Part shown: in pieces, positions 9,802 to 30,538 of the stretch
How positions within the stretch are numbered: position 1 is the stretch's first letter
Layout of the letters: every line of letters starts with the position of its first letter
NCBI GenBank assembly: GCA_002702655.1
Contig: PABB01000072.1
Span: forward strand, 1 to 64,000
Reading direction: 5' to 3'
Length of the DNA stretch: 64,000 nt
From: Planctomycetaceae bacterium
Lineage (GTDB): Bacteria > Planctomycetota > Planctomycetia > Pirellulales > Lacipirellulaceae
Position numbers and translations under genes: made by a program
The notes under the pieces: model-generated
What the model was told of the DNA's origin: nothing
The model's input: only the letters and a program-made list of their open reading frames with translations
The model's database searches: none

Positions 9802-9812
9802 CTGAAGAGTAA

Positions 9813-10617: not shown

Positions 10618-10622
10618 CTTAT

Positions 10623-10692: not shown

Positions 10693-10696
10693 CTTT

Positions 10697-10784: not shown

Positions 10785-10788
10785 CTAC

Positions 10789-10852: not shown

Positions 10853-10860
10853 CTGCGAAC

Positions 10861-10932: not shown

Positions 10933-10936
10933 CTAC

Positions 10937-11009
10937 GCCTTGCGAGTGTGACGGACGAGCACGGCAGACTTCGAATCTGCAAGACGGGGTTCGATTCCCT
11001 GGCGAGGTA
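10937..11009 (+). tRNA. tRNA-Arg(TCG)
   Basis: Acceptor GCCTTGC/GCGAGGT, D stem GTGT/GCAC, perfect anticodon stem GCAGA/TCTGC with loop CTTCGAA, T arm CGGGG-TTCGATT-CCCTG. Confidence 0.65.
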
Positions 11010-11013
11010 CTTC

Positions 11014-11084
11014 AGCCTGTGAGTGTGTTGGATGCACGCGACCGTGCGAAGGTCGTAGGCCAGGTTCGATTCCTGGACGGGCTG
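11014..11084 (+). tRNA. tRNA-Arg(GCG)
   Basis: Acceptor AGCCTGT/ACGGGCT, D stem GTGT/GCAC, perfect anticodon stem CGACC/GGTCG with loop GTGCGAA, T arm CCAGG-TTCGATT-CCTGG. Confidence 0.6.
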
Positions 11085-11091
11085 CTAATTT

Positions 11092-11162
11092 GACGCTGGA
11101 GCCAGATGGCCAGGCAGCCGGCTGCAACCCGGCCAAAGTGGGTTCGACTCCCACCGGCGTCT
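11092..11162 (+). tRNA. tRNA-Cys(GCA)
   Basis: Acceptor GACGCTG/CGGCGTC, perfect anticodon stem GCCGG/CCGGC with loop CTGCAAC, T arm GTGGG-TTCGACT-CCCAC. Confidence 0.6.
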
Positions 11163-11274
11163 CTTTGTAAGCGAGGTTTTGAAAGCGCTGGGCCAGCGGC
11201 GCCCTCGGCCCCTTTCACCAGGTTGGCCGGGTGTGTTCCGTGGATGGATTGTTACGAAGGCGCGCGAGACCGCC

Positions 11275-13147: not shown

Positions 13148-13186
13148 AAAGCCCGCCCGGCTCACGAGCCTGGCGGGCTTTTTTCG
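13148..13186 (+). terminator. Rho-independent terminator-like hairpin
   Basis: AGCCCGCC...GGCGGGCT stem followed by TTTTTT. Confidence 0.55.
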
Positions 13187-13347
13187 TTTCTGGAGATGGG
13201 GAACGGCTTCGTTTGCCAACAACCCCTGTCGAGTTGCGACCGCTGCCCTGGCGCTGCATGGGCACAAAAAGGCCGTTGAGGCTGCTCACCTCTCCGGCTG
13301 GCCAGCGGTCGCGACGCAATTCCTTGTAGGAAAGGAGTGATAGAGCG

Positions 13348-14529
13348 ATGGTTCAAAAGATCCACGTCAACGTCGGCACGATCGGTCACATCGACCACGG
13401 GAAGACGACGCTTACCACCGCGAACTTGCGCGTGCAGTCCGGGCGCGGCCTGGCCGAGTATAAGTCCTACGCCGAGGTCGCCAAGGGCGGCGTCACCCGC
13501 GACAAGAACAAGACCGTCACGGTCATCACTTCGCACGTGCAGTACGAGACGGAGTCGCGCAGCTACGCGCACGTCGACTGCCCGGGCCACGCGGACTACA
13601 TCAAGAACATGATCACCGGCGCCGCCCAGATGGACGGGGCCGTGCTCTTGGTGTCGGCCGTGGACGGCCCGATGCCGCAGACGCGGGAGCATATCCTGCT
13701 GGCGCGGCAGGTCGGCGTGCCTCACCTGGTCGTCTTCATGAACAAGTGCGACCTGGTCGAGGACCCGGAGTTGCTCGACCTCGTGGAGCTGGAGATGCGC
13801 GAGATGCTCACGCACTACGGGTTCCCAGGAGAGGACGTTCCGTTCGTGCGGGGCTCCGCGCTCTTGGCGCACGACAACCCGGCGGACGCGGAGTCGAGTC
13901 GTTGCATCGGCGAGTTGCTGGACGCGCTCGACACGTACGTGCCTGCCCCCAAGCGGGCGGTCGACAAGCCGTTCCGGATGTCGATCGAGAACGTGTTCTC
14001 GATCGAGGGGCGGGGCACCGTTGTGACCGGCGTGGTCGATCAAGGCCGGATCGCTCCCGGCGACTCGGTCGACATCGTCGGCCTGGCGGACCAGCCGCGG
14101 ACGGTCGTGTGCACGCAGCTCAAGACGTTTCAGGACGTCTTGGAGTCCGCCGAGGCGGGCGACAACGTCGGTTGTTTGCTCCGTGGCGTCGGCCGCGATG
14201 AGGTCGAGCGCGGGCAGGTGATTGTCGCTCCCGGATCGCTCGCGCCGCACACACGGTTCGAGTCGGAGGTGTACGTGCTCGACCAAGGAGAGGGCGTCCG
14301 GCACACGCCGTTCATAAACGGTTACACGCCGCAGTTCTTCTTCCGCACGACGGACGTGACCGGAGAGGTGAGCCTGCTGGGAGGCGCCGAGGTCGCGATG
14401 CCGGGCGACGGCATCAAGCTCGGTGTCCGGCTGCAGAAGCCAATCGCCCTGGATGCTGGCTCGCGTTTCGCGATCCGCGAAGGGAACCGCACGGTTGGTT
14501 CCGGTGTCGTGACGTGTATTATTGAGTAG
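13348..14529 (+). CDS. tuf: elongation factor Tu paralogue with a divergent switch I
   Basis: 393 aa with G1 [24 protein letters not shown] and the EF-Tu C-terminal [10 protein letters not shown]. The switch I/effector region is [15 protein letters not shown] where canonical EF-Tu has [19 protein letters not shown] SD. Not in a str/S10 ribosomal context. Confidence 0.85.
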
Positions 14530-14589
14530 CTTGAACGCCGGAGGCCGGGAGCTATCCCGGCCTCCGGCCTGTTTCAGTGGAGAGAGTTC

Positions 14590-15150
14590 ATGGCCAACGA
14601 GCGCATTTACCTCGCCCTCGGCGATAGTATGAGCATTGATGACTACACCGGCGTGAAGGGCGGCGGTGCGGTCAATCAGTTCTTTCGCTCCTTGGGCAGC
14701 GACTGGTCGCTCGACGACCGTACGTTTGACGGTTGTCAGATGGCCGGTGTCCCGAGAGACGGGGTCGGCGATATCGTCACGCTGACTATCGGCGGCAATG
14801 ACCTGTTGTGGAACAAAGAAGAGTACCTCCGTGAAGGAGTTGCCGACTTCGCGGCGGAGCATCTCGCCCTGCTGCGGGCGCTCCGGAAGCAGAACCCGAC
14901 CTCGCTGCTGATCGTGGGAGACATCTACGGCCCCGCAGCGCCCCTTACGGACGCCGAGGCGCATGGTCTGGCGCACGCGAATCAAGCGATCCACGAGAAC
15001 TGCCGCGAGGTGGGGGCCCGACTCGCCACGATTCACGAGGCATTCCAGGGCCGCGAAGATTCGCTGTTGTGTCTTGGAATCGAGCCGACTCTTAAAGGGG
15101 CTGAAGTGATTGCAGGGCTGTTTGCGGATGCAATGACACGCGAGCGGTAG
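14590..15150 (+). CDS. SGNH/GDSL hydrolase family protein
   Basis: GDSMS block I and GGNDL block III. GGAGAG SD. Confidence 0.75.
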   Translation: MANERIYLALGDSMSIDDYTGVKGGGAVNQFFRSLGSDWSLDDRTFDGCQMAGVPRDGVGDIVTLTIGGNDLLWNKEEYLREGVADFAAEHLALLRALRKQNPTSLLIVGDIYGPAAPLTDAEAHGLAHANQAIHENCREVGARLATIHEAFQGREDSLLCLGIEPTLKGAEVIAGLFADAMTRER

Positions 15151-15199
15151 TTCGTCGTTGCCTTGCTGCGAGAGTGGCTTTGGTGCTGCCTTTCGAGTC

Positions 15200-16833
15200 A
15201 TCAGTAGCAACGTGGCGTCGTGAGGTTGAAGAGCCTTCGGTCCAGGTTGGTTTGGTTCGCTGTCATAAACGTTTGAAGCATGTTTCGGCCACCCGGTTCG
15301 CTTCTCACCGCCCCACCAGCGCTTCGGCGGGACCGGGACAACCGTTCCTCGCAGCGGCAGCACGCGGTCGTGCAGCTTCTCCATCTCGTAGTTGATCGTC
15401 TCGTCGCTCATCCGCAGGCTCATCTCCGTCATGCTGATGAACGGGCCTTCCTCCGCCTCACGCGGGTGACGGGCCTCCCATTCCCGGACCTTCTCGTGCG
15501 CCTCCCGCGAGTGCGTCGTCATCAGCGCCGAACGGCACTCGGACGTCTGCTCGTGGTCATCGCTCGCGTCCAGAGCGCCGGCCAGCTCCGCGCGGCCCCA
15601 GGGCTGGTCGACGATCGCCAGCGCCGCCGCAGCCGTGATGCGGTTGCAGGGAATCTCTGAACGCAGCGCCCGCCGAAACGTCTCTACCGCGATGTCGGGA
15701 AAGAACTCCAGCGCCAGCAGCGCAGCGTCTCCCAGGCAGTTCGACTCGATGCGGCGGAGCGTCTGCTTGATCCCCGAGGAGCGTCCCCGCCGCAGCAGGT
15801 ACTCGGCGCAGGCGCGCCACACGTACGGCTGCGGGATCTCCCCGTTGGCGTTGATGCGGTTGATCAGCGCCTCGACCTCGTCGGTCCAGTCAGAATCGAT
15901 CTGGGCGAGCACTTCTAGCGCCGCGGAAGTCTCGCCCGAGGGCGGGCCCGCCAGGCACCGGCGGAGCACCCCTTCGAGCCGGTCGCTGCCGAGCGCCCGC
16001 AGCGCGTGCAGCGACTCCGCCCGGTCGACCCCGGCGTCGAAGTCGGATTCGAGGGCCGCCGCCCTCTCCGCCACGTGCTCACTGTGCAAACGCTCCGCCG
16101 TCGCCGAGTCGTCCCCCTCGACCAGCGACGCGACACAACCCCAGTCCCCGAGCGCCGCCCCCAGGCAGCAGCGGACCTCGGCGCTGCCCCAGCGCTCTTC
16201 AATCCGCGCGAGCAACTCGGCGATCGCTTCATGCTGAAAACCAACCCGAACGCCGCTGCTCTCCTCGAACGTCTCGAGCAGGCCCGCGTCCTTGAGCCGC
16301 CTCATCGCCAGCCGGACCGCGGCCCCGCGGGGGTGCAGCGCCTTGACCCGCTCCTCGACAAACGCCGGCGCCTTCAGCGACTCGAGATACCATACAAAGA
16401 AGTACGGGTCGGTCCAGTCGCAGGAGTCGTCGTAGAAGTCGACGTCGATGGCCTCGCCGCTTTGCCGGTGGGTGAGGCAGCAGCCCCGGCCGTGGAAATA
16501 GTACTCCCAGTCATCATCCCCGGGCACTACTCCTCGCCCCGGCCGATCCGGGTGGCCGGCGTATCCAGATGTCGCCAGGGCCTGAAGGCTGCCGCCAAGT
16601 CGAGCGACCACCGTGTCGGCGACGAACTGCTGGCGTTCCCGGTGCCGCACCAAGCAGAGCAGTGTCCAGGCCTCCCACGGAGAGATGGGCAGCGGCGCAC
16701 TGAGCCAGCGCCGCCAGAGACCAGGGTGGTCAACGTCATCGGCGATGGATCTGAGTCGCTCGGTCAGTGCTCTTATAGTTTTTTCCAACCTACTGACGCC
16801 CTGTAATCTCCGGCCTTCATCGGCCACTCCCAT
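15200..16833 (-). CDS. hypothetical protein (N-terminal third of a 1223-aa ORF)
   Basis: The first roughly 500 aa have protein-like composition (W/F/Y/D/E-rich). The remainder of the ORF is antisense to the GDSL and EF-Tu genes and is regarded as spurious read-through. There is no in-frame stop, so the C-terminal boundary is unknown. Confidence 0.3.
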
Positions 16834-17155: not shown

Positions 17156-17590
17156 ATGGCGCTTGATAAGCGTACGCGCGAGCAGATGCTCGCAATGTGT
17201 GGAGAGATCCACGAGGACGACGGGGTCGACCCCCGCGAATTCTTCAAGTCGGGACGTGGTCCCCGCAAGCAAGACCACAAAGCGCGGCAGCTCTGCCGCC
17301 AGGCGGCGGCGACCTTGGACCAGGTACTCTCTGGAGAGACGGGCGACGATCGACTGGCCTGCCTGCGGGTCGTCTCGGTGCAGCCAGCACCGGACGCATC
17401 GCGGCTGCTGGTCACAGTTGTGGCGACCTGCGCTGCAGTGGACTTCTGTCGAGATGCGACAGCAGCCCACCTGCAAGGGTCCGCAGGGCGATTGAGGACC
17501 GCGGTCGCGGCGGCGATCACGCGTCGCAAGGCGCCGACGCTGGCGTTCGTCTTGCTCGGCCCCGATGGAGAGGAGGCCCAACATGGTTGA
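17156..17590 (+). CDS. hypothetical small protein, translationally coupled to rtcB
   Basis: ORF ends 7 nt into the rtcB start region and has plausible composition. No recognised domain. Confidence 0.4.
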   Translation: MALDKRTREQMLAMCGEIHEDDGVDPREFFKSGRGPRKQDHKARQLCRQAAATLDQVLSGETGDDRLACLRVVSVQPAPDASRLLVTVVATCAAVDFCRDATAAHLQGSAGRLRTAVAAAITRRKAPTLAFVLLGPDGEEAQHG

Positions 17591-18716
17591 GCCACAACTC
17601 GCGGAACTGCAAACCTGGCTCACCGAACCGCTGACGTCGGCCGTCGCGGAGTCCGTATCAAGACTCCGCGCGGCCGAGGGCGTGAAGAAGGTTTGCCTGA
17701 TGCCCGACGTGCACCTCGCTGCAGAGGTGTGCGTCGGCGCTGTGGTCGCTACCGAGGGCGCCCTCTACCCACAAGCGGTTGGAGGCGACATAGGTTGTGG
17801 CATGGCGGCGCTGCGTTTCGACCTCGAAGCCGAAGCGCTTAGCAACGAGCGGCCGGCCGGCGCCGTGCTGGCCGCCCTGTACCGGTCTGTGCCCAGCAAC
17901 AAGCACCGCCAGGCGGTCCCTCTCCCTGAGGCGTTACGCCCCGCCGATCTGAGCGAGCAGACACTGGCTAAGCTCGCCACGCGTGACGGCGCTGTGCAAC
18001 TCGGAACGCTCGGTCGCGGCAACCATTTTCTGGAGTTCCAAGTAGACGAAGCCGGGCAGCTGTGGGTGATGCTGCACAGCGGCTCGCGGGCGATGGGGCA
18101 GGCGATCACCGCTCTCCATGTATCAAACGGAGAGCCAAACCGTTTCGGGCTCCGCGGCCTCGACGCCGAAACCCATCTCGGCGCCGCCTATCTTAAGGAC
18201 GTGGCTTGGGCGAGGAAGTACGCCACGGAGAACCGGTTGGCGATGCTGCGGGCGGTTGAAGAGCTCATGTCTCGGCTCTTCCGAGCCGACGCGGACTGGA
18301 AATCACTCATCCACGCCGACCACAACCACGTGCAGAGAGAGGCTTACGGCGGGCGGAGCTATTTCGTCCACCGCAAAGGCGCTCAATCCGCGGCGGACGG
18401 CGAATCCGGCGTCGTTCCCGGTTCGATGGGCGCCGCCAGTTTCCACACCGTCGGCCGAGGCTGCGCAGCGTCACTCTCGTCCTGTTCCCACGGGGCCGGA
18501 AGGCGCATGAGCCGGACAGAAGCCCGCCAAGAGATCACCAGTAAGTCGTTCCAGCGGCAAGTTGGCGGGCTCTGGTACGATCACCGCCGCGTCGATCGCC
18601 TGCGAGACGAGTCGCCCGGCGCCTACAAGAACATCCGTGAGGTGATGCGCGCCCAGCGCGAGCTCGTCAAAATCGTCCGCAAACTCCGGCCCCTGCTGAG
18701 CTACAAGGGCGTCTAA
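17583..18716 (+). CDS. rtcB: RtcB-family RNA ligase (3-prime-phosphate/5-prime-OH)
   Basis: PDVHLA, GGDIGCGM, GRGNHFLE, HADHNH and SHGAGR motifs. GGAGGAGG SD before the ATG at 17583. Short, about 378 aa form. Confidence 0.85.
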   Translation: MVEPQLAELQTWLTEPLTSAVAESVSRLRAAEGVKKVCLMPDVHLAAEVCVGAVVATEGALYPQAVGGDIGCGMAALRFDLEAEALSNERPAGAVLAALYRSVPSNKHRQAVPLPEALRPADLSEQTLAKLATRDGAVQLGTLGRGNHFLEFQVDEAGQLWVMLHSGSRAMGQAITALHVSNGEPNRFGLRGLDAETHLGAAYLKDVAWARKYATENRLAMLRAVEELMSRLFRADADWKSLIHADHNHVQREAYGGRSYFVHRKGAQSAADGESGVVPGSMGAASFHTVGRGCAASLSSCSHGAGRRMSRTEARQEITSKSFQRQVGGLWYDHRRVDRLRDESPGAYKNIREVMRAQRELVKIVRKLRPLLSYKGV

Positions 18717-18817: not shown

Positions 18818-19852
18818 TCAGCTCAAGACCGTCAATAGTCGATCGTGAATGATGGGCCACGGCCGATCGAGATCGATGCTCTTGATGCCGATCGCGTGGC
18901 CGAGCAGCGTGAAATCGAGGTCCAGGTGGTGGTTCACCGCGGGGTAGAGCAGGACCCCCGCGACCGACTCCCACCCGGGGTCGCGGGATTTGTTGCTCAG
19001 GTAGGCGGTCAACTGGTAGAGGTGCGCCGAGTGCAGGCGGTGGCGGTTGTGGCGGGTCGCCAAGGCTGACTTGTAGAACTTGCAATCGAGGATCGTTTTC
19101 TTGGCGGGCCGGTCGAGCGTCACGTCGGTGTGCATCCGCGGCAGCACCTGCTCGACCTCGTCCCCCCATGACCCGTCCCAGTTGATCGCCATGGCCGACA
19201 CCCTGGCGTCGGGGCAGTGCCGGATCGCGAACTTTCGCACAAACGCCTCGAAAACCCGGTGCATGACCGTTTCCGATTCCAGGATGCTCCGGAACCGCTT
19301 GCCGCCCGCTTGCTGCGAGGGCAGGTGCGCCTCGTGCAGCAGCTGGCACACGTGCATCAGCAGACGGTAGTGCCGGTTGTTGCGGTGCAGCTGATAGCGG
19401 CGGAAGGTTCTCGAAGTAATCGCCACCGGCTGGATGTCCGACAGCAGCGCGAGCGCGTGCCGCGCCTCCAGCCGGTTTTCCTTGGTGAGCTGGGAGCCGG
19501 CGGCCGCGAGCCGCAGGCAGGTGCTCTTGAGGATGCGGTTGGGGAGCGTGTTCGCCGTCAGCTCGTCATACTCGCAGAGCATCCGCCCGGAGACGTGCAT
19601 CATCCGCCGGCAGCTCGCCAGCACGTCGACGCGACCGCGCAGACGCGGCGTCGCCTCCCGAAACTCATGGTAGCCCTTGTCCATCCCTTGGCTGGCTAGG
19701 CAGCGCACCCCGCCGGTCAACAGCATCGCCAGCAGGTTGTGGGCGTCGGGGCACTGCCGCGGGTCGATGTTGACCTCCTCGCCGCTGCGGAAGTGGTCCC
19801 ACGCGTAGGCGAGCAGGTAGTAGACGTTCTGAACGGGGATCGCACTGATCAT
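18818..19852 (-). CDS. mcrC: McrC-like restriction system subunit
   Basis: PD-(D/E)xK-like LDCKFYK motif. ATGA overlap with the upstream McrB gene. Confidence 0.8.
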   Translation of the reverse strand: MISAIPVQNVYYLLAYAWDHFRSGEEVNIDPRQCPDAHNLLAMLLTGGVRCLASQGMDKGYHEFREATPRLRGRVDVLASCRRMMHVSGRMLCEYDELTANTLPNRILKSTCLRLAAAGSQLTKENRLEARHALALLSDIQPVAITSRTFRRYQLHRNNRHYRLLMHVCQLLHEAHLPSQQAGGKRFRSILESETVMHRVFEAFVRKFAIRHCPDARVSAMAINWDGSWGDEVEQVLPRMHTDVTLDRPAKKTILDCKFYKSALATRHNRHRLHSAHLYQLTAYLSNKSRDPGWESVAGVLLYPAVNHHLDLDFTLLGHAIGIKSIDLDRPWPIIHDRLLTVLS

Positions 19853-21981
19853 TCGACCGGCCCGTCGAGCAGTTCCAGCGCCGCGGCCAGTTGCGTGGCG
19901 TCGTCGCAGTAGTACTCTTCCAGCAGCGGCCTGATCTCATAGGCGAGCACCTGATTGAGCCAGGCGGCGTTGGCCGGCTCGCCGTCGGTCGGGCAGAAGA
20001 AGCTGTGGCCGATGCGGTAGCCCCGGCCCAGGTTCGACTCGTCCGCGGCGATCATCTCGTTAAGCCGTTTCATGCGACTCGCAATCTCGGCGGTCAGCTC
20101 AGCGGGAGCGCCGCGGCTTTGTAACAGGCTCGTGAAGACCGGCGAGTCGAAGCCGGGGGCGAGCTCGACGAACGCAAACCGGCGGCGCAGCGCGTAGTCG
20201 ACCATCGAGAGCGACCTATCGGCGGTGTTCATGGTGCCAATGAGGTGGACGTTGGGCGGGACGTAGAAGGTCTCTTCGGGGTCGGAGGAGTAGCTCAGCG
20301 GGATCGCGAACTCGGACGACCGCTTGTCCGGCTCGATGAGCATCATCAGCTCTCCGAACACCTTGGACATGTTGCCGCGGTTGATCTCGTCGATGATGAA
20401 CACAAACGGCAGCGTGGGTTTCGCGAGCGCCGCGTCGACGAAGCCGTGGAACGTCCCGTTCTCCAGCTTAAAGCCGCCGTCGCCGCTCGGCTTGAACCCC
20501 TGCACAAAATCCTCGTAGGTCAGGGACTGGTGAAACTGCACCATCTGCACGCGGGACTCGTCCTGCTGCCCCATCAGCAGGTAGGCGAGCCGCTTCGCCA
20601 CGAACGTTTTGCCGGTGCCGGGCGCGCCCTGCAGCACGAGGTTCTTCTTCCGCTTCAGCAGCTCGACGCAGGACTCGACCTGCAGCTGAGGCAAGAACAG
20701 GTCGGTCATTGCTTCGGTGATGCCGTAGGCGCGGTGAACGGGCTTGGGCGTAACTTTACGGGCGGGCTCCGGTGGAGGCCCCACCGATTCCAGGCCCGGG
20801 ACGCCCTGGTACTCCTGGGCCATCTGGGCCAGGAAGCTGGTCTTGGTCGTGACGCGGGTGATCGTCTTGAGCGGCAACTGCGTCCCGGTCGGCATCTTCG
20901 CCTCGGTGTCGCCCTGCCAATCGATCTTCCGGACGTTGTAGTACGGGTCGCGGCTCTCGTCGTACTGATAATCGCCGGCGACGACCCCCCAGCCGCAGAT
21001 CTTGTGCAGGCCCTGCTTCGCGAACACGACGTCGCCCGGCCGCATCTCGCGTGCGAACTCCCACAACATATGGGCGACGTGCAGCGGCCCGGAGTCCTCG
21101 TAGACCTTGGGCAGGTACTCCATCATCGCTTCTTTCGAGGGGTACTCGTTGAGGTCCCCCATACCGTTCCAGCCGATCGCCCCAAGCCCTTCGGCAAACC
21201 AGGTATCCCACAGCACGGCCCCTCGCCCCGGGGCGAGCAGCCAGTAGTTGCGGTCGGAAGCGGGGGCGGGGCCCACATCTTCGTCATCGTCCGGCACGGG
21301 CTTCTCCTCCAGGGTGTTGAGGTGCGCTTGGAGTGAGAATTCGCAGGTTGATTTGTCGGTCTTCTGCCGGACCTCTTCGAGCCACTTCAGGTAGTCCGCC
21401 CCGCCGGCGACCTGGCGGGTGACGCCCAGCGAGGAGGCGTACTCGCGATTCTTCTTGTCGACCGCGATCCACAATTCCGGTCGGCTCCAAAACATCCCCA
21501 TGGTTAGCGACGCGGGGGCGACCTTCCGCAATGCACAGCAGGCGTCGAACAGTTCGGTGTCAAGCTCGCTGGGGGCGTCGATCTCCAGGCAGTGCCGGTA
21601 GAAACGCCAGAGAGTCGCCACGTGGTGAGGTTCGCGGCGTTTCTGATACGGCATGAACCAGCTCGATTGCAGGTTCATGATTGGCAAGCCATCAAAATCC
21701 TGCGGCAACTCCGCGCCCAGTTTCCACTCGTCTTTGATCGCTGCAATGATGGCCCGGCGGTTGTCGTAGGTCACGCCCCGGTTGAAGTTGGCGAAGAACG
21801 AGAAGGGGTCGATCTCCGCCATGGGGACTTCCTTGTCGTTCACGTCCCGATCCACGACGCTCGACACTTTGAGGCCTTGGTCGTGCAGCTTGATCATCAG
21901 CGCGACAAGCTGGTCGTGCGAGTGCTCGAACTCGCAAAGCTTCTGGGCAATCTCTGCGTAAATGGGCTTCCATGTGAACAT
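19849..21981 (-). CDS. mcrB: McrB-like AAA+ GTPase restriction subunit with N-terminal domains including an EVE/PUA-like reader domain
   Basis: Walker A GAPGTGKT, FIIDEINRGN and the McrB GTPase core. N-terminal region YWLLAPG...GDVVFAKQG..ICGWGVV resembles the EVE/PUA-like fold. Confidence 0.85.
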   Translation of the reverse strand: MFTWKPIYAEIAQKLCEFEHSHDQLVALMIKLHDQGLKVSSVVDRDVNDKEVPMAEIDPFSFFANFNRGVTYDNRRAIIAAIKDEWKLGAELPQDFDGLPIMNLQSSWFMPYQKRREPHHVATLWRFYRHCLEIDAPSELDTELFDACCALRKVAPASLTMGMFWSRPELWIAVDKKNREYASSLGVTRQVAGGADYLKWLEEVRQKTDKSTCEFSLQAHLNTLEEKPVPDDDEDVGPAPASDRNYWLLAPGRGAVLWDTWFAEGLGAIGWNGMGDLNEYPSKEAMMEYLPKVYEDSGPLHVAHMLWEFAREMRPGDVVFAKQGLHKICGWGVVAGDYQYDESRDPYYNVRKIDWQGDTEAKMPTGTQLPLKTITRVTTKTSFLAQMAQEYQGVPGLESVGPPPEPARKVTPKPVHRAYGITEAMTDLFLPQLQVESCVELLKRKKNLVLQGAPGTGKTFVAKRLAYLLMGQQDESRVQMVQFHQSLTYEDFVQGFKPSGDGGFKLENGTFHGFVDAALAKPTLPFVFIIDEINRGNMSKVFGELMMLIEPDKRSSEFAIPLSYSSDPEETFYVPPNVHLIGTMNTADRSLSMVDYALRRRFAFVELAPGFDSPVFTSLLQSRGAPAELTAEIASRMKRLNEMIAADESNLGRGYRIGHSFFCPTDGEPANAAWLNQVLAYEIRPLLEEYYCDDATQLAAALELLDGPVE

Positions 21982-22105
21982 GCTGTGCTCTCGTCCGTCG
22001 TCGTGCCTTACGGGTGGATGTAACCATCCGCCGCTCGACGCCCATTATCGCGGATCGGCGACCACCCGCCAGGACCGCCCCCTGCGTTGAGCAAGTCAGT
22101 CGCCC

Positions 22106-23380
22106 CTACCGGGGCTTGCGAGGGATGTGACCCTCACGCGCGAGCAGGTCTTCGTCTACCTTCTCATCGAGAACGGAATGCGGGCTGGGGCGCAGCGGGT
22201 CAAGACGGTCCGCCTGCTCAAAACCCCACCTCAAGTAGTCGGCAAGGCGGCTGTCAATCGCCACAACCCCGTCGGGGGCCTTCGCCCAGCACAGCTGGTC
22301 CAGGTATTCGCGTAGCACCTCGCTCTGACGCAACGAGTCGGCGTGATGGATCAGCCGCTCGACACAGGCACGCTCCTCGTCCTGGCGCTGCTTTAGAGCG
22401 TCGCGCAGACGCTTCAGTTCTGCCTCACGTTCCAGACGGACCCGCTCTGCCTCGGCTCGACGACGCTCTTTTTCCTCGCGTTCACGGCGGGCAATTCGCC
22501 CCTCCCCGGCCTCCTTCACGAATCCGATCACCAAGCCCTCCAGCTTGTCTTCAATCTTCTTCGCCTTGCCGTCGATCGCGAGCGGGGAGCGGTAGCTCGA
22601 CGGCCCATCGTCCAGCAAGAGATTACCGCTGGGCACCAGGTCGAGTTGGTCACGCTCCCATGAATACTGCGCGTCCGGATTCTTGGTGCGGACCTGGTTG
22701 TGCTTCTCACGGATCCGCAGCGTCGTCACGGTCTCGCCGGCGAAGCGAACCACCGTCTCGTACTGATTGGCGTTGTAATGCTTCGGCTCGACTTGGACGA
22801 CTCCCCCGACTTGCTCGATCCGCTTGATGAGGGCGTCCATAATGCGCAGCGCTCTCTTTAGCAAAGAGCCGCCTACCTCCACCGACAAACCACGCGGGGC
22901 CTTGTCGCGACAGTCGCTGGAACGCTGCGACCAAGGGAGTCTCTGCTGAGCCGCTTCGCGCTGTAGGCGTTCTTTCGTGGCCAGGATCAGGGGGTGCGGC
23001 TTGCGGAGCTTCTCGGGAACCAACACGGCGCCGAGAGACGTCGCCTTGGCGAGCAGCTGGCGAATGTCGTCATCGTACTGGAGTTCGCGTGGCGGTTCGT
23101 CGACCGTCGATTCATAGTCTTCGTGCTGATGAAAGACGATCCTGCGTTGGTCCGCCTCTTCGTCCGGCGGCAGCGGCGTCTTCTTGGTCGTTTTGCCGTT
23201 GGCCAGCTTGACCCAGTAGCCGGGGTAAGGCTTGGGGATGTTGTACGAACGGCAGGTCTTGCCAATGGTGACGTCCGAGCACCCTAGCTCTTTTGCCAGT
23301 CGGGTCGCCGGCGCAGACCACACAAAGTCGTAAAACTCTTGGCGAGTGAACGAACGAGTTTCACATTCTGTTACTGGCAA
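22106..23380 (-). CDS. hypothetical protein with N-terminal HTH-like region and a central Arg/Glu coiled coil
   Basis: TRLAKELGCSDVTIGKTC helix-turn-helix-like segment. RREREEKERRRAEAERVRLEREAELKRLR coiled coil. GGGAG SD. Confidence 0.5.
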   Translation of the reverse strand: MPVTECETRSFTRQEFYDFVWSAPATRLAKELGCSDVTIGKTCRSYNIPKPYPGYWVKLANGKTTKKTPLPPDEEADQRRIVFHQHEDYESTVDEPPRELQYDDDIRQLLAKATSLGAVLVPEKLRKPHPLILATKERLQREAAQQRLPWSQRSSDCRDKAPRGLSVEVGGSLLKRALRIMDALIKRIEQVGGVVQVEPKHYNANQYETVVRFAGETVTTLRIREKHNQVRTKNPDAQYSWERDQLDLVPSGNLLLDDGPSSYRSPLAIDGKAKKIEDKLEGLVIGFVKEAGEGRIARREREEKERRRAEAERVRLEREAELKRLRDALKQRQDEERACVERLIHHADSLRQSEVLREYLDQLCWAKAPDGVVAIDSRLADYLRWGFEQADRLDPLRPSPHSVLDEKVDEDLLAREGHIPRKPR

Positions 23381-23804
23381 TAGTCCGCTCCCGTATTGAT
23401 TAAACCTTGAGACGTCCCTGGCAACCTATCAATAGGCAGGATCTCGTGAGTAAGCAAACATGGTGGGGCTCGATCGCTGTTCAGTAAACTGAGGCAGTGC
23501 TCCAACCCGGCCGAACTGAGGGCGCTGTTGCCTTGATCTTGCAATACGGTGTGTATTCACCCCTTGATGTTTGTGTCGAGGTCGAAGCGAACTTAGAAAA
23601 CGCGATGAAGCTCCCAAACCACCATCTCGGATGCGTTGGGGCAAGGGATCAAAACGCCATGTTGGGCAACTCCGTGGATTGTAACAGCTGCGAGGCTTGG
23701 CAACCCGGCCGAGGGCTCACTGCATGAATACGCGGCATTGATGCGTGGTCACAAATGCGCGCCCGGCGGGTATCATAGGGGTTTTCATACACGATCGATT
23801 CCGC

Positions 23805-25028
23805 ATGCCCGACGAAGAGAAGCACGACCCGCGTCAGCCGCTTCCGTACCATTTTGCGATCCGCGACTACCTCAAGAACGAGGAGTCGCAGATTTGGGAG
23901 TGGTACGCGTCGAACCGCGTGCGCGCTGAGCAGAACGAGGCGATCCGCTTCGACCTGCTCAAGTCGACCTACCGCATCGACCGGGACGCCCAGCCGGCCC
24001 TATACGACATGGCCGACAAGGTCGCAAAGAGTCTCGGGATGGAGGTCCCGGTGACGCTCTACCAGGCCCAGAACCCGCAGGGCCTGAATGCGTCGCTGGC
24101 GTACATCCCCGACGAAGCCCACGTCGTCTTGCACGGCCCCATCGCGTCTCGCCTGACCGAGCCGGAACTGCGGGCGTTGCTGGCCCATGAGTTGGGCCAT
24201 CTTCTGCTCCACAGCCGGTGGGGCGGGGACCTCCTGGTCGCCGAGCAGGTCCTCGCGGCGATGACCCACGACCGCGACGCCGACACGCCGCACTTCGCCA
24301 GCGCCCGGCTGTTCGGGCTTTACACGGAGGTGTTCTGCGACCGGATCGCGCTCGACGTGTCGGGCTCTCCGCTGGAGGTGATCTCGATGCTGGTGAAGAT
24401 CGCCACCGACCTGGACGAGGTGAACCCGGAGAGCTACCTGAAGCAGGCCGCCGAGATACTCGGGAAAGGCCCGATCAAGACCGCCGGCCTGTCCCACCCC
24501 GAAGCGTACATCCGCGCGCACGTGCTGCAGCTGTGGCATGAACAAGCCGTCGAGGCAAACGCGCGGATCGCGGAGCTGATCGAGGGCCCGCCCGCGCTCG
24601 ACGAGCTTGACCTCACGGCCCAGGTGCGCGTCATGGGCGTCACGCGGCGACTGATCGACGCCATGCTGGCGCCGAAGTGGCTGCAGACCGACGTGATCCT
24701 CGCCCACGCCCGCCTCTTCTTCGAGGAATACGCACCGGCCGACAACGACATCGCAATCGAATCGCTCCGCGAAGATATCCAACAGAGCGACCAGCCCCTC
24801 CGGGACTACTACTGTTACGTCCTATTGGACTTCGCCTCGGCCGACCGGGAATTGGAGGAAGCGCCTCTGGCGCAGGCGATCGGCGTGGCGGACGCCGTGG
24901 GCCTCGATGATGGCTTTCTCAGCATCGCCGCAAAAGAACTCAAACTCCGCAAGAAGCAGGTCGAGAAGATCTCCGCCGACCGAGAACGCATTGTCGCCGC
25001 CGCGGCCAAGCTGGAGGCGGCGTCATGA
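23805..25028 (+). CDS. soluble M48-like zinc metallopeptidase-fold protein
   Basis: HELGH motif with a downstream EVFCDRIA third-ligand motif, M48/HtpX-like, and no TM segments. The stop overlaps the start of the downstream helicase gene (ATGA). Confidence 0.6.
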   Translation: MPDEEKHDPRQPLPYHFAIRDYLKNEESQIWEWYASNRVRAEQNEAIRFDLLKSTYRIDRDAQPALYDMADKVAKSLGMEVPVTLYQAQNPQGLNASLAYIPDEAHVVLHGPIASRLTEPELRALLAHELGHLLLHSRWGGDLLVAEQVLAAMTHDRDADTPHFASARLFGLYTEVFCDRIALDVSGSPLEVISMLVKIATDLDEVNPESYLKQAAEILGKGPIKTAGLSHPEAYIRAHVLQLWHEQAVEANARIAELIEGPPALDELDLTAQVRVMGVTRRLIDAMLAPKWLQTDVILAHARLFFEEYAPADNDIAIESLREDIQQSDQPLRDYYCYVLLDFASADRELEEAPLAQAIGVADAVGLDDGFLSIAAKELKLRKKQVEKISADRERIVAAAAKLEAAS

Positions 25029-28000
25029 CAACACTCGCCGATTTCCTACGCGACCGTTTCGAGGTCGACGGCTTCACGACCGAAGACGCGCTGGCCAGCT
25101 TCCTACCCCTGGCGCGGGAGGTCCTCGACGCCCACGCGGCGGGCATGGCCGCGCCATTGGACGGCCTCGACGAACTCCGTGTCGAGGGCGTGCGGATCTG
25201 GTTTGAAGAGGCCAAACGACGGGAAGTCCGCCGCGTCAGCAGTGACTTGCAGCGGATCGAACGGGCGGGCCGAGCGGCCGTCGAGATCGTCTCGGAGACG
25301 CGCATTACAACCGAACTGGACGACGGCGTCGAAAAGGTCGTCGACCTGGCGATTGGCGACGCCGACGAGACGCCGACGCGGCCGATTTATCTGCCGGGCT
25401 ATCGCTGCTGGGAGCACCGGCTGGGCGTCCACGACCCGCTGACGGACGTCTTTGCCCTGGGCATGATCCTGGCGAGCCTGGCGTGCGGGCTCGACTTCTT
25501 TGACAAAGAGCAACTCGAAGAGTTTGTCGCCCACCGCAAGAACCTCTTCGCGCTCAACTCCGGCCTGCACCCGGTTATTGCGCGCGTGATCGTGCGGATG
25601 ACCCAGCTCGATCGGCGGGACCGCGCGCAGGACCTCGCGTCGCTGGTCAAGACGCTCCAGAGCTACCGCGACCAGGAAGTCGACTTCGAGTTCGATCTTG
25701 CGCACTCCTCGGAATTCGCCAAGGGATCGAAACGCGACCGGCAAACGGTCATCCTCGCCAAGCTCCGCGAGCGGCTCTTCGAGATTTCCCGCCGCAACAA
25801 GCTGCTGCATTTTCGGCCGACGATGCAGAGCGTGAACCTCACGCACGCGTCGGTGCCGTTGTCCTTCGACATCCAGAGCATCCGCCCCGGGCAGATCCTG
25901 GTCTGGAACGATCGGTTGCATCGCGAGGTGACAGGCGGCAAGCCGATCTCGTTGAACAAGTACCTGAATTTCTCGGAGGTCCTCTACCTGCCAAGCCAGC
26001 TGGAGCGGTTGATCGCCGAGGCCCGGCGCGACCAATCCGAATTCGGCTTCGCCCAGCTGCGGCTGGTGATCTGCTTCTTGCACTGGGCCAACCTCAAGGA
26101 AAAACCGGTCGAGCAGTACGACTCGCCGCTGGTGCTGCTGCCGGTCCAGCTGCGCAAGAAGAAGGGGATCCGCGACACCTACTACCTGGACGTCGTCTCG
26201 ACCGAGGCCGAAATCAATCCAGTGATCCGGCACCAATTCAAGCAGCTGTACGACATCTCCCTGCCCGAGTCGATCGACTTGGCCACGTCGTCGCTCGACG
26301 GGCTGTTTGAACTGCTGTCGCGCAAGATCGCGGCGTCCGAGTCGGCGGTGAATCTCACCAAGATCGATCGTCCGCGTATTGCGCTGATCCACGAGAAGGC
26401 CCGCCGCAAGCTGGACCAGTACCGCCGCCGTGCGCGGCTGGCCGGTCGCGGGGTCCGCAAGTACCTCGATCTCGACTACAGCTACGACCCGGCCAACTAC
26501 CACCCGCTGGGGATCAAGTTGTTCGGGGCCAAGGTGCGGCCCGCGCAGACCCACCTCCGCGAGATCATCGAAGAGAAGCCCCGGCCCAGGACGTTTGCGA
26601 CCGCCGAGCCGGACCCGCCCGTTGCCGAGAAGGAGCGACAGTTCTATGCGTTGCAATCGGGCGGCGAGGCGAACCCCTATGACTGGACGTTCGACCTGTG
26701 CAGCGTAACGCTCGCGAATTTCAAGTACCGCCGCATGTCCCTGGTGCGGGACTACGAAGCGCTATTGGGCGATGGGCTGACGAACCCCGCGTTCGAGGCG
26801 ACGTTCTCCCTGGCGCCGCGCCCGATCGACAACCAGCCGCTCGACGCCCGCGCGTTGGCGGACCGCTTCGACGTGGTGCCCTGCGATCCGACGCAGGCCC
26901 GCGCGATCGCCGAGGCCGAGCTGGGCAAGAGCTTCATTATCCAGGGCCCGCCGGGCACGGGGAAATCGCAGACGATCACCAACCTGATCGCCGACTACGT
27001 CGCGCGGGGCAAACGCGTCCTGTTCGTGTGCGAGAAGCGGGCCGCGATCGACGTGGTCTATGCGCGATTACGGCAGTGCGGCCTGGCCGACCTCTGCTGC
27101 CTGATTCACGACTCGCAGACCGACAAGAAAGAGTTCGTGATGGACCTCAAGCAGTCTTACGAGAAGCTGCTTGAATCGCCGCAAACAAAGTCCCAGGCGG
27201 CTGGCCGGGGCGAGATGATCCAGCAATTGAGCCGGACAATTACGCCGCTGGATCGATTCAGCGCTGCGATGCAGTCAGATCGCCCGGAGCTTGGGACGTC
27301 CGCCCGCGATCTGTTGGACCGCTGCATTGAGCTCCGCCGCGATCTGCCTGAGTTGGATGCCCTCACCCGCGAACAGCTCCCGACGCACGCTGAGTGGCTT
27401 GCCAGCCGGTCCGCAGTGGGGCGTTTCGAACGCGCCCTGGCCGACGCGGGGGGCGGAAAGGTGCTCGCCGAGCATCCCATGCGCATCCTGTCACCGCGGC
27501 TTGCCTCCGAGGAGCACCCGCTGGAGACGATTTCCCACTGCGTGCGTGAAGCTATCCCGCAGTTGGACCAAGCGGAACAATTGCTCGGCCGGTGCGGCGT
27601 GCCTCGTAGCGGGTGGGAACCGTTGGAGCGGGCGGTGCAGCTTACGCAATTCGCGTCTCGACTCAAGGAAGTGGCCGAGGCGGGTCTGGTGCACCTCTTG
27701 GATCCCCAGCACGAGCAGGCCAGGTGGCTGGGCGAGCAGGTCAAGGCCCTGCAGAAGTCCAAGCAGGCGGTTACAGTGGCCGAGCAGGTGAACGTCAACT
27801 GGGCGGAGAAACTGACCGCCGAGGAGACGGGGCTCGCCCTGGAGCAGGCCCGACAATTCGAGCAAGCGAGGTTCGCTTGGCTCTCGCCCGCTTGGTGGCG
27901 GCTGCGCAGCGTTCTGAAGCGTGGTTACCGCTTCGGGGCCCACAAGATTCGGCCGCCTTGGTCGCGAGTCCTTGAGCAACTCGCCAGCGAGCATGAAGCG

Positions 28001-30538
28001 GTCGCAGCTCGGCGTCGTCTGTTGCAAGAGACGGCCGACCGCTTGGGGGTGGACGTCGAAGCTGCGCCGGGGCTGATCGAAACCATTGGCGAGGTCTCCA
28101 CGCACGCCCCGAAGCTTCCCCGTTGGCTCTCCGCGGTTCACGCCGCGCTCGTGAAGTCGCCGCGGGCGGGCGAGATCGTCGCGCGGGTGCTCCAAGCGAA
28201 GACCGCCGTAGAATCCGCTCACGGGCAGCTGGCGAGGATCTCCGACTCGGCCGCTCAGCTGCCGCTTGCTGAGTTGAAGAGTTCCCTTAAGCACGTTAGC
28301 AACAACCTCGAATCTGTTCCCGACTTTCTGGAGTGCATCCGCGAACTGCGGGCGACTCCGCAGGCGGTCGCCGCCGCCCTGCGGACGCTGCCGCATACAC
28401 CGCGCGAAATCGAAGCGGCCGTAGCGGACCGCGGCCTCGCCGAGCTGTATCGGCAGGACAAGCAGTTCGAACGGTTCACCGCCAGAACCCGCCACGCGCT
28501 GGCCTCGCGCCTGGAGGGGAGTTACGACCAATGGCTCGGGCTCAATGCGGCCGAGATCCGTGATCGCGTGCGGCGCCAGTTCCTCAAGAGCCTGCACGTC
28601 ACTGAGCAGCCGGCGGCAAAGCTGTCGGCGGAAGAGAAGGAGTTCAAGCGACGCTACAACCGGGGCCGCCGGGAACTGGAGCACGAGTTCGGCAAGCAGA
28701 TGCGCTACAAGGCGATCCGCGACTTGGTCAGCGACGAGTCGGGCGACGTGGTCAACGACCTGAAGCCGGTCTGGCTGATGAGCCCGTTGAGCGTTTCGGA
28801 CACGCTACCGCTCTCGCCAGACCGGTTCGACGTAGTCATCTTCGACGAGGCGAGTCAGATCACGCTCGAAGAGGCGGTGCCTGCGCTGTTTCGCGCCGCG
28901 CAGTCGATCATCGTTGGCGACGAGATGCAGCTGCCGCCGACCGACTTTTTTTCCGCGAAGCAGTCGGCCGAGGAAGAGGAGGAATTGCTCGTCGAGTCGG
29001 ATGGGGAACTCGTGCAGTACGACCTCGATTCGGGCAGCTTCCTCAGCCACGCTGCGAAGAACCTTCCTTCGACGATGCTCGGTTGGCACTACCGCAGCCG
29101 GAGCGAATCGCTGATCAGTTTCTCGAACTGGGCATTTTACGACGGCCGGCTGCTGACGGTCCCGGAGGAGTCGCTCGCCAATGTCCAGCGGGAGCCGATC
29201 GTCGCCGAATCGCCGGAGCACGGCGCGGTTGGCGCTCAGGAGGCGTTAGCCCGCCCCATTAGCTTCCACCTCCTGCGGCACGGCGTCTATGACAAGCGTC
29301 GCAATCGCGCCGAGGCAGAATACATCGCCGAGATGGTGCGGCAAGTGTTGACCGACTCGCCGCAGCAGACGATCGGGATCGTGGCGTTCTCCGAGGCGCA
29401 GCAGGACGAGATCGAGCAAGCGCTCACGCGCCTGGCAGCCGACGACAAGCCTTTTGGCGAAGCCTTGGAGCAGGCCTACGAGCGGGAGGACGACGGGCAG
29501 TTCGTCGGACTGCTGGTCAAGAACCTGGAGAACATCCAAGGGGACGAGCGGGACATCATTATCCTCAGCGTTTGCTACGGTCGTCCCCCGACGGGCAAGA
29601 TGCGGATGAACTTCGGGCCCATAAACAAGAGCGGCGGCGAGAAACGGCTGAACGTCGCCTTCTCCCGCGCCAAGCAGTACATGGCAGTCGTCAGCTCGAT
29701 TGAGTCGACTGAGATCACTAACGACTACAACGACGGCGCCAACTGCCTGAAGAGCTACCTGCGCTACGCCGAGGCGGTGTCGGCCGGGGATGCGGAGGCG
29801 GCCGCAAGGGTTACGAGAAGTCTCTCCCGTTGGACGCACGACGAACAGGACCAGGCGACGCCCGCAAGGGAACTGCTCGCCGAGCAGCTGGCCGAGCGAC
29901 TCGCGGCCGCGGGCTATCAGGTGGATCACGCCGTGGGGCAGTCCCATTTCCGGTGTGATTTAGCCGTTCATCGCGAGGGAGATTCCGTCTATCGACTTGG
30001 CATCCTCATCGACGGCTGCGGTTACTACGAGCAGTCGGATCTGCTCGAACGCGACATGATGCGCCCCCGGCTGCTGCGTGCGTTCGGCTGGCGGATTGTG
30101 CATGTCCTGGCGAAGGACTGGTACGCCGACAGTCAGGATGTAATGGATCGACTTGTCGCCATCCTTGAAGGGGGTGAGATTGACGACGACGAAGACGTCG
30201 ACCTTGAGCTGGATGACCTCGATGTCACCAATGACTCGACTGCGATCGAGGAAGACGCCGACGCATCCGCAGGGGGCGATACGAATCAGCAAGGTGGCGA
30301 TTCGGACGCGGCTGGCTCAAGCAGCCAAGGCTCGCGCCGATTCGAACTGCGAGATGGCAAGTCGAGCAAGTTCTGGGAAATCTCTCTCGCGGGCGAGCAG
30401 CATTCGGTCACGTTCGGACGAATCGGGACGACCGGCCAGACTCGTACAAAGTCGTTCAACGACGAAGCGGCGGCTCGCAGAGACTGCGAGCGACTTATTC
30501 GCGAGAAGACGAAGAAGGGCTATGTCGAGGTCGACTAG
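25025..30538 (+). CDS. DUF4011-family Upf1-like SF1 helicase with C-terminal DUF559/MTES-like endonuclease domain and terminal WGR domain
   Basis: 1837 aa with an N-terminal DUF4011-like region (LRLVICFLHWANLKE) and an AAA_11/AAA_12 helicase core (GPPGTGKSQT, DEASQ, VGDEMQLPP, GDERD). DUF559-like block GYQVDHAVG...RLGILIDGCGYYEQ...GWRIVHV. An acidic linker is followed by a WGR domain (SKFWEISL...GRIGTTGQTRTKSF...LIREKTKKGY). Confidence 0.85.
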   Translation: MTTLADFLRDRFEVDGFTTEDALASFLPLAREVLDAHAAGMAAPLDGLDELRVEGVRIWFEEAKRREVRRVSSDLQRIERAGRAAVEIVSETRITTELDDGVEKVVDLAIGDADETPTRPIYLPGYRCWEHRLGVHDPLTDVFALGMILASLACGLDFFDKEQLEEFVAHRKNLFALNSGLHPVIARVIVRMTQLDRRDRAQDLASLVKTLQSYRDQEVDFEFDLAHSSEFAKGSKRDRQTVILAKLRERLFEISRRNKLLHFRPTMQSVNLTHASVPLSFDIQSIRPGQILVWNDRLHREVTGGKPISLNKYLNFSEVLYLPSQLERLIAEARRDQSEFGFAQLRLVICFLHWANLKEKPVEQYDSPLVLLPVQLRKKKGIRDTYYLDVVSTEAEINPVIRHQFKQLYDISLPESIDLATSSLDGLFELLSRKIAASESAVNLTKIDRPRIALIHEKARRKLDQYRRRARLAGRGVRKYLDLDYSYDPANYHPLGIKLFGAKVRPAQTHLREIIEEKPRPRTFATAEPDPPVAEKERQFYALQSGGEANPYDWTFDLCSVTLANFKYRRMSLVRDYEALLGDGLTNPAFEATFSLAPRPIDNQPLDARALADRFDVVPCDPTQARAIAEAELGKSFIIQGPPGTGKSQTITNLIADYVARGKRVLFVCEKRAAIDVVYARLRQCGLADLCCLIHDSQTDKKEFVMDLKQSYEKLLESPQTKSQAAGRGEMIQQLSRTITPLDRFSAAMQSDRPELGTSARDLLDRCIELRRDLPELDALTREQLPTHAEWLASRSAVGRFERALADAGGGKVLAEHPMRILSPRLASEEHPLETISHCVREAIPQLDQAEQLLGRCGVPRSGWEPLERAVQLTQFASRLKEVAEAGLVHLLDPQHEQARWLGEQVKALQKSKQAVTVAEQVNVNWAEKLTAEETGLALEQARQFEQARFAWLSPAWWRLRSVLKRGYRFGAHKIRPPWSRVLEQLASEHEAVAARRRLLQETADRLGVDVEAAPGLIETIGEVSTHAPKLPRWLSAVHAALVKSPRAGEIVARVLQAKTAVESAHGQLARISDSAAQLPLAELKSSLKHVSNNLESVPDFLECIRELRATPQAVAAALRTLPHTPREIEAAVADRGLAELYRQDKQFERFTARTRHALASRLEGSYDQWLGLNAAEIRDRVRRQFLKSLHVTEQPAAKLSAEEKEFKRRYNRGRRELEHEFGKQMRYKAIRDLVSDESGDVVNDLKPVWLMSPLSVSDTLPLSPDRFDVVIFDEASQITLEEAVPALFRAAQSIIVGDEMQLPPTDFFSAKQSAEEEEELLVESDGELVQYDLDSGSFLSHAAKNLPSTMLGWHYRSRSESLISFSNWAFYDGRLLTVPEESLANVQREPIVAESPEHGAVGAQEALARPISFHLLRHGVYDKRRNRAEAEYIAEMVRQVLTDSPQQTIGIVAFSEAQQDEIEQALTRLAADDKPFGEALEQAYEREDDGQFVGLLVKNLENIQGDERDIIILSVCYGRPPTGKMRMNFGPINKSGGEKRLNVAFSRAKQYMAVVSSIESTEITNDYNDGANCLKSYLRYAEAVSAGDAEAAARVTRSLSRWTHDEQDQATPARELLAEQLAERLAAAGYQVDHAVGQSHFRCDLAVHREGDSVYRLGILIDGCGYYEQSDLLERDMMRPRLLRAFGWRIVHVLAKDWYADSQDVMDRLVAILEGGEIDDDEDVDLELDDLDVTNDSTAIEEDADASAGGDTNQQGGDSDAAGSSSQGSRRFELRDGKSSKFWEISLAGEQHSVTFGRIGTTGQTRTKSFNDEAAARRDCERLIREKTKKGYVEVD

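Follow-up and report, generated by a model that had tools for sequence, protein, structure and literature searches.

An operon-like cassette of an M48-fold peptidase and a ProA-related helicase, conserved in Planctomycetota and other phyla, as a candidate sensor–protease module

The gene pair described here comes from the metagenome-assembled genome of a Planctomycetaceae bacterium in the TARA Oceans metagenome; the window that was analysed comprises positions 1–64,000 (forward strand) of contig PABB01000072.1 in assembly GCA_002702655.1. Two genes on the plus strand form the pair: the first encodes a soluble zinc metallopeptidase with an M48-type fold, and the second a very large multidomain superfamily 1 (SF1) helicase (Table 1). 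The ATG of the helicase gene overlaps the TGA of the peptidase gene within the tetranucleotide ATGA, an arrangement that points to translational coupling. An earlier note on this DNA, drawn up from the sequence by itself, had reported the same two open reading frames (ORFs) and their overlap; we reproduced its coordinates and protein lengths exactly, and the public gene calls on this contig, made independently, are identical for both genes. Promoter and terminator scans gave results no different from those for shuffled sequence, and the weak sigma-70-like match ahead of the peptidase gene is indistinguishable from chance.

Table 1. Positions of the two genes and their features in the 64,000-nucleotide window (aa, amino acids of the respective protein).
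Feature	Position	Strand	Basis
Weak match to a sigma-70-like promoter, 29 nt ahead of the peptidase ATG	23748..23776	+	1 site vs 0.8 expected in shuffles
M48-fold zinc metallopeptidase gene, soluble, 407 aa	23805..25028	+	ATG start, ORF call, Pfam, homologues
HELGH zinc-binding and catalytic motif, aa 128–132	24186..24200	+	invariant in 25 homologues
E175, putative third zinc ligand	24328–24330	+	proposed by analogy with M48
All-helical domain at the peptidase C-terminus, aa ~248–407 (~160 aa)	24546..25025	+	no confident family
ATGA overlap, peptidase stop and helicase start	25025..25028	+	second ATG overlaps first TGA
Multidomain SF1 helicase gene, 1837 aa	25025..30538	+	ORF call, Pfam, NCBIfam, PADLOC
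Protein-kinase C-lobe-like N-terminal domain, aa 1–220	25025..25684	+	structure match; no N-lobe, HRD or DFG
DUF4011, aa 250–402	25772..26230	+	Pfam 48.5 bits vs cut-off 22.2; aligns to DUF4011 of ProA
SF1 helicase domain 1A, Walker A GPPGTGKS at aa 641–648	26885..27244	+	Pfam AAA_11, IGHMBP2/UPF1 PDB matches
Large, less conserved insertion between the helicase halves, aa ~741–1255	27245..28789	+	conservation profile; hhalign colinear with ProA, which shares the insertion
Rest of helicase core: Walker B DEASQ (aa 1274), QGDERD (aa 1505), motif VI RLNVAFSRAK (aa 1541)	28790..29698	+	second AAA_11 stretch and AAA_12
MTES_1575/Vsr-like endonuclease-fold domain, aa 1620–1713	29882..30163	+	Pfam 71.2 bits vs cut-off 38.2
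Acidic low-complexity linker, aa 1716–1771	30170..30337	+	19 D/E vs 1 K/R
C-terminal WGR domain, aa 1772–1836	30338..30532	+	Pfam 63.1 bits; PDB 2ra8, E = 8.6e-11

The pairing of the two genes is not incidental. A scan for the peptidase motif, covering one genome for each of 185,579 species, returned 286 species, and the 80 best loci were examined; three of these are cut off at the peptidase gene or inside it, leaving 77 that are informative. In 76 of the 77, the peptidase gene is followed immediately by a helicase match in the same orientation, and in 75 this match is either full-length or cut solely by the end of the contig. The two exceptions, a locus in which the peptidase is followed by a helicase remnant of just 176 residues (L048, 11209–11739), and one with an orphan, full-length peptidase and no helicase within 10 kb (L038, 5620–6825), may be due to decay or mis-assembly. 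The spacing of the genes is similarly constrained: among the 75 loci, the frames overlap by 4 nt in 49, by 8 nt in 10 and by 1 nt in one, and are 2–3 nt apart in a further four, such that 64 overlap or abut. In L016 (11215–12316) and L072 (11215–12043), the usual overlap is replaced by 1.1 kb and 0.8 kb, respectively, between peptidase and helicase. The loci belong to Planctomycetota, Verrucomicrobiota, Acidobacteriota and Lentisphaerae, with a few probable mis-binned contigs.

The same picture emerges when the pair is approached from the helicase side. Some relative of the helicase is present on 496 plasmids in PLSDB, and on 14, all of them Ralstonia megaplasmids, that relative is full-length, at 99% coverage and 43% identity, and includes a WGR domain; the peptidase is found in exactly those 14 records, adjacent to the helicase and with the 4-nt overlap, and no relative of it was detected on any other PLSDB plasmid. 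Four further orthologues picked by helicase similarity, including those of the isolates Anaeromyxobacter terrae (Myxococcota) and Roseimaritima ulvae, also have the peptidase upstream, which brings the helicase-side total to 18 of 18 loci. Furthermore, a comparison of pairwise distances over 56 taxa gave a correlation of r = 0.97 between the peptidase and helicase matrices, a value that is inflated by shared ancestry but was reached by none of 999 permutations; this shows that partners have not been swapped. The 20-kb neighbourhoods hold no conserved third gene, the largest clusters of non-core neighbours comprising six loci at most. Thus, the two genes constitute a strictly conserved, operon-like cassette that has not been described as a pair, and in at least five phyla the two have been inherited, and have moved, together.

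That the cassette is also an accessory element is best illustrated by the Ralstonia solanacearum complex: 136 megaplasmids match a 13-kb query, and most share the flank that contains a UvrA paralogue, yet the pair itself is present in only about 14. In Ralstonia syzygii, the match is limited to the two genes and some 30–60 nt to each side, the flanks of the query having no counterpart there. The pair has therefore been gained, lost and moved as a two-gene unit. In the megaplasmid of R. solanacearum CFBP 8697 (L081, 20880–26717), it abuts a UvrA paralogue of 1945 residues. An origin of the pair in phage was rejected, given that pattern scans of IMG/VR and a search of 50,697 phage records gave no relative of the peptidase, and the phage collections yielded a single, distant and partial match to the helicase.

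The helicase is a composite protein. DUF4011, a Upf1-like SF1 core, an MTES-like domain, an acidic linker and a WGR domain had all been proposed from the sequence, and each is recovered by Pfam or by composition. The core is recognized by AAA_11 (80 bits) and AAA_12 (67 bits), which span residues 621–740 and 1346–1558, and its sequence matches in the PDB are to IGHMBP2, UPF1 and SEN1 (the last at residues 1256–1341), with the WGR domain matching a WGR protein from Bacteroides. Among orthologues, there is almost no variation in Walker A and B or in motifs III, V and VI. The periphery is more variable: the acidic linker is poorly conserved and often missing, and of 116 orthologues, no more than 64 have the length (>1790 residues) needed to accommodate a WGR domain. 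The WGR fusion emphasized in the earlier note is, therefore, real in this protein, but it is an option apparently taken up by about half of the family. Neither a HEPN nor a transglutaminase domain was found in the helicase by Pfam.

The earlier list of domains had missed the N-terminal region, which structure comparison identifies as having a protein-kinase fold, in the absence of any Pfam kinase match. The domain starts at residue 1, so there is no preceding sequence that could supply an N-lobe, and family consensus sequences VAPLEGL and IWFEE stand at the positions (placed by eye) of HRD..N and DFG. Since the hallmarks of a C-lobe are invariant, namely, W129-E130 (the 'APE' glutamate), D141 in DVFALG and R200, and the N-lobe, HRD and DFG are all lacking, the domain is a pseudokinase C-lobe devoid of catalytic motifs. 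ProA lacks the domain, which is confined to this clade.

Comparison with ProA is central to placing the helicase. ProA proteins are DUF4011-SF1-MTES_1575-DUF3320 giants, with whose core that of the window helicase is colinear, including the large insertion; hhalign aligns residues 244–1715 with ProA 369–1710 at 100% probability, with both termini lying outside the alignment. At the N-terminus, ProA has a region of ~370 residues to which the 243 kinase-C-lobe-like residues of the window helicase cannot be aligned. At the C-terminus, it ends in a DUF3320 tail, in place of which the window clade has an acidic linker and WGR domain, or nothing. DUF3320 itself is a pair of winged helices (PMC3710099).

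The profile scores tell a similar story. Against the NCBIfam ProA model (NF058533), the helicase scores 704 bits (cut-off 1500), matching positions 630–1721 of 1903, and its Ralstonia orthologue reaches 707 bits, compared with 2224–2310 bits for bona fide ProA proteins encoded on plasmids of Klebsiella and Burkholderia. The match to the NCBIfam Hhe model (NF042953) is 453.5 bits (cut-off 2000), the best stretch being residues 1215–1715, and that to the Hhe model of PADLOC is 313 bits. Hhe is reportedly a single-gene defence system, described by Gao et al. in 2020; the C-terminal half of its helicase and its Vsr-like domain are homologous to the window protein. With the PADLOC candidate PDC-S37, the score is 705.6 bits (model 224–1350 of 1550, residues 560–1726). 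As ProA-type proteins score 1182–1238 bits on PDC-S37, the one from Klebsiella matching nearly the whole model (9–1531 of 1550), PDC-S37 and ProA are the same family. The helicase is thus, on sequence grounds, of a known kind, that of the DUF4011 SF1 group of ProA (PDC-S37) and Hhe, and its core derives from the same stock as those anti-phage proteins; to call it poorly characterised, as had been done, understates what its relatives reveal. The pair as such remains unnamed, in that no curated model assigns it, the ProA and Hhe cut-offs both being missed, and our literature search found no paper describing ProA, PDC-S37 or an M48/WGR/helicase pair. What is new is the combination of a peptidase partner, a pseudokinase domain, an altered nuclease site and an optional WGR domain, which together define an undescribed variant.

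Might the helicase nevertheless be an ordinary single-gene ProA or PDC-S37 protein, next to which the peptidase is an incidental neighbour? Its hidden Markov model matches are strong (706 bits to PDC-S37 and 704 to ProA), and PADLOC might label it PDC-S37, but the ProA score is below half of the curated cut-off, against 2224–2310 bits for the true members, and neither terminus is homologous. Moreover, sampled ProA-type genes stand alone, without a peptidase upstream, whereas in the window clade the peptidase accompanies the helicase in 75 of 77 loci from the one side and in all 18 from the other, mostly with overlapping frames. The conservation data contradict this explanation, which we consider very improbable.

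The peptidase was predicted to be a soluble M48-like protein with an HExxH(+E) signature, and this prediction holds. Pfam M48 (PF01435) is matched with 26.0 bits (cut-off 20.3), albeit over only ~70 residues; H128, E129, H132 and E175 are invariant across 25 homologues; and structure comparison returns an M48-type fold, with signal-transducing zinc proteases of the BlaR1 type among the matches. There is neither a transmembrane segment nor a signal peptide: Kyte-Doolittle means over 19 residues peak at 1.36, and the N-terminus is hydrophilic. A membrane or periplasmic location is typical of the M48 enzymes Ste24/ZMPSTE24, HtpX, Oma1 and BepA. Unlike these, and unlike the zinc-protease domain of BlaR1, the window peptidase is soluble and cytosolic, bears an additional helical C-terminal domain of ~160 residues and is dedicated to a helicase partner. 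Beyond the HExxH region, PADLOC and NCBIfam searches gave no family match and nothing specific, and a sequence search of the PDB with the peptidase profile found no match. For the C-terminal domain, TerB-like and KaiA assignments were set aside, as the matches amount to weak helical-bundle similarity.

At 50% identity, the peptidase family comprises at least 425 clusters (E ≤ 1e-30), all of ~400 residues and none fused to another domain; the largest of the 150 best representatives does not exceed 545 residues. Apparent peptidase–helicase fusions were discarded, the long spanning ORFs being helicase frames that stay open through the peptidase gene in a different frame.

The nuclease-like domain of the helicase retains the MTES_1575 fold, with a Pfam score above threshold; its site, by contrast, has changed throughout the clade. 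The ProA-type motif F-R-I-D-L-G ... G-V-E-C-D-G-A-T-Y-H ... R-D-R-D is here F-R-C-D-L-A ... G-I-L-I-D-G-x-x-Y-Y ... E-R-D, such that ECDG..YH becomes LIDG..YY. The glutamate of ProA, at position 1661, is leucine in 108 of 117 orthologues and otherwise Phe, Met or Gln, but never acidic, and the histidine is replaced by tyrosine in 112 of 117. The MTES_1575 scores fall from 118–122 bits in ProA to 50–71 bits. With both residues replaced clade-wide, the 'helicase-nuclease' label of the earlier note is doubtful: the domain is probably degenerate, either non-catalytic or altered, and a loss of catalysis is the probable outcome.

Taken together, these features suggest a self-contained, co-translated accessory module in which the helicase would act as the sensor and motor and the M48 peptidase as the effector, probably in defence against phages or other mobile elements; we put the probability of this reading at roughly 45%. 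It is supported by the conservation of both the peptidase active site and the ATPase motifs of the helicase. The helicase would load onto foreign or aberrant DNA or RNA, with the WGR and nuclease-like domains serving as nucleic-acid-binding modules, and its ATP-driven engagement would switch on or position the peptidase bound to it, for which the pseudokinase domain may be the docking site. Proteolysis, rather than cleavage of DNA, would be the output, and the target either a nucleic-acid-bound protein of the invader or a host factor.

Coupling of a peptidase to such a helicase has precedent, because in the MTES_1575 prototype giants (Anantharaman et al. 2013) a transglutaminase-like cysteine peptidase is fused to the SF1 helicase, and protein cleavage was proposed as a line of defence (PMC3710099); the window peptidase differs in being a separate M48-fold zinc enzyme. 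Hachiman provides an analogy: in HamB-HamA (PMC12278908), a helicase surveys nucleic acid and an adjacent enzyme is its partner. The logic of helicase sensor and partner is alike, but there is no sequence relationship, and the partner in our pair is a protease instead of a nuclease. In Pseudomonas aeruginosa cDHS1 (PMC10250203), too, a DUF4011 giant is preceded by a small, conserved partner, but it is core and not accessory.

Several points weigh against a protease-effector defence module. The case for defence, plausible as it is, comes solely from homology of the helicase core, and both the binding of the two proteins to each other and the control of the peptidase by the helicase are proposals that we infer. 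The nuclease might still work, given that D1645, D1663, E1675 and D1677 are retained and that the additional acidic residues E1669 and D1672 could compensate. Identity across Pirellulales is 55–60%, which is rather high for a defence gene. Finally, the genomic context is not that of a defence island: among 144 proteins encoded by the two nearest genes on each side of the pair in some 55 loci, 131 different Pfam families are represented, mostly metabolic or housekeeping, and PADLOC matches only three, one each to PDC-S24, a reverse transcriptase and DruE/SNF2. The neighbours in the Ralstonia locus and in the four helicase-picked loci are likewise mostly housekeeping genes. The earlier argument from a defence island does not, therefore, generalize.

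The retained residues invite a different division of labour, in which the helicase-nuclease is still the effector, as in ProA or Hhe, and the peptidase is its regulator or maturation factor, removing the acidic tail or the pseudokinase, acting in the manner of an antitoxin or sensing a phage protein. The MTES_1575 match (71 bits, above the Pfam threshold) would agree with this, as would the occurrence of the signal-transducing, M48-type BlaR1 among the structural matches of the peptidase; the acidic linker is a plausible autoinhibitory element, and protease-activated effectors are common in defence, according to PMC12642450. Set against these are the clade-wide loss of the acidic residue at 1661 and of the histidine, the reduced domain scores, and the absence of linker and WGR domain from half of the orthologues, in which the peptidase is still kept. 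Strict stoichiometric coupling by gene overlap is also easier to reconcile with a stable complex than with an enzyme that acts once in maturation, and we regard this scheme as decidedly unlikely.

The housekeeping character of the neighbourhoods speaks for a role in genome maintenance, whereby a 5'–3' SF1 helicase moving along DNA or RNA would present the covalently or tightly bound proteins that it encounters to the metalloprotease, with the WGR domain sensing nicks or ends. The pair would then be a functional analogue, in bacteria, of DNA–protein crosslink proteolysis of the SPRTN/Wss1 type with help from a helicase. The WGR domain is a DNA-break-binding module in poly(ADP-ribose) polymerases (PARPs). 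The relatively high conservation and the largely vertical inheritance within phyla are in keeping with such a role, as are the UvrA paralogue that abuts the pair in Ralstonia and the repair ligase RtcB that stands beside or near it in three loci; additionally, if the nuclease is as degenerate as it looks, proteolysis is the sole evident chemistry besides ATP hydrolysis. On the other hand, the distribution is patchy and strain-variable (about 14 of 136 Ralstonia megaplasmids, and 286 of 185,579 species by the pattern search), unlike that of a core repair pathway, and the closest characterised relatives are anti-phage proteins. The SprT-like Pfam model scores the peptidase below its cut-off, the fold being M48 and not SprT, and half of the family can do without the WGR domain. 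The region ahead of the Ralstonia pair contains no LexA-box-like site, and regulation by the SOS response was accordingly discarded. Genome maintenance is, overall, an unlikely explanation, although the foremost among the alternatives to a defence module.

In the window itself, genes for McrC (18818–19852) and McrB (19849–21981) lie on the minus strand beside the pair, as had been stated. The EVE domain ascribed to McrB has no Pfam match, the public annotation giving DUF8425, DUF8426 and McrB_lid; residues 246–358 match the PADLOC candidate PDC-S02 (61 bits). The supposed helix-turn-helix protein (424 residues, 22106–23380) has as its sole hint a weak RWP-RK match (E = 0.043). Apart from McrBC, no PADLOC match was found within ~10 kb of the pair; the gene for EF-Tu is 9 kb away. 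The block formed by McrC, McrB and the 424-residue ORF (18818–23380, minus strand) separates the pair from RtcB (17565–18716), and because RtcB (61% identical; 8755–9924) is directly upstream of the peptidase in the Bythopirellula locus L004 (region 8755–11224), the block looks like a lineage-specific local insertion. The RNA ligase is next to or near the pair in these two syntenic loci and in a third, L064 (1865–3412), where the Verrucomicrobium protein is distant (26% identity). L003 likewise has the block of ATP-grasp, leucine-rich repeat, DUF6745 and radical SAM genes beside the pair, which is inverted relative to that block.

Six loci, drawn from two phyla, have ADP-ribosylglycohydrolase genes no more than 10 kb away from the pair. 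These genes are at 17428–18429 and 20455–21216 in L001, 1957–3009 in L004, 3454–4860 and 8729–9802 in L047, 27–314 in L057, 1059–2399 in L075, 8358–8696 in L080 and 3034–4893 in L085; in L047 and L057, the gene is directly upstream of the pair on the same strand, and one also adjoins an archaeal ProA-like DUF4011 gene. These neighbours, together with the PARP-type WGR domain, hint at a possible link to ADP-ribosylation. One Pirellulales genome has, 2.4 kb upstream of the pair, a 792-residue fusion of BrxL_N, a BrxL Lon-like ATPase and a protein kinase (L002, 5170–7548, minus strand); the 'BrxL-kinase' cluster of neighbours was dismissed as an association, being held together by nothing other than 25–33% identity over common kinase and ATPase domains. 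Further from the pair, a minus-strand ORF of 1223 residues in the window (13162–16833) runs antisense to the public EF-Tu and GDSL lipase calls and is probably spurious as a whole; its residues 96–157 match Pfam DUF6896 (E = 7e-12), opposite an unannotated plus-strand ORF of 266 residues (16006–16806).

A more specific formulation, which bridges immunity and repair and which we advance tentatively, is that of a helicase-guided protease: an SF1 motor, akin to anti-phage helicase-nucleases but having given up the cleavage of DNA, would track nucleic acid at the expense of ATP and so point a dedicated zinc protease at proteins bound to DNA or RNA, either for immunity, by stripping or killing nucleoprotein complexes of an invader, or as a bacterial equivalent of the crosslink proteolysis that helicases assist in eukaryotes, with the kinase-derived C-lobe as a docking or regulatory platform. 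If a sensor–protease arrangement is correct, the cassette would bring a new effector logic to the DUF4011 helicase group that includes ProA and Hhe, with nucleic-acid sensing as input and proteolysis as output, and it would exemplify module swapping, nuclease residues having been lost while a peptidase, a pseudokinase and a WGR domain appeared. It would also provide a function for the ~400-residue 'M48 family metalloprotease' genes and their 'AAA/WGR domain-containing' partners that are common in Planctomycetota and Verrucomicrobiota, phyla from which few systems for defence or repair have been investigated. The presence of the cassette in some plant-pathogenic Ralstonia, and in the cultured isolates Roseimaritima ulvae, Blastopirellula marina and Anaeromyxobacter terrae, makes these ideas directly testable.

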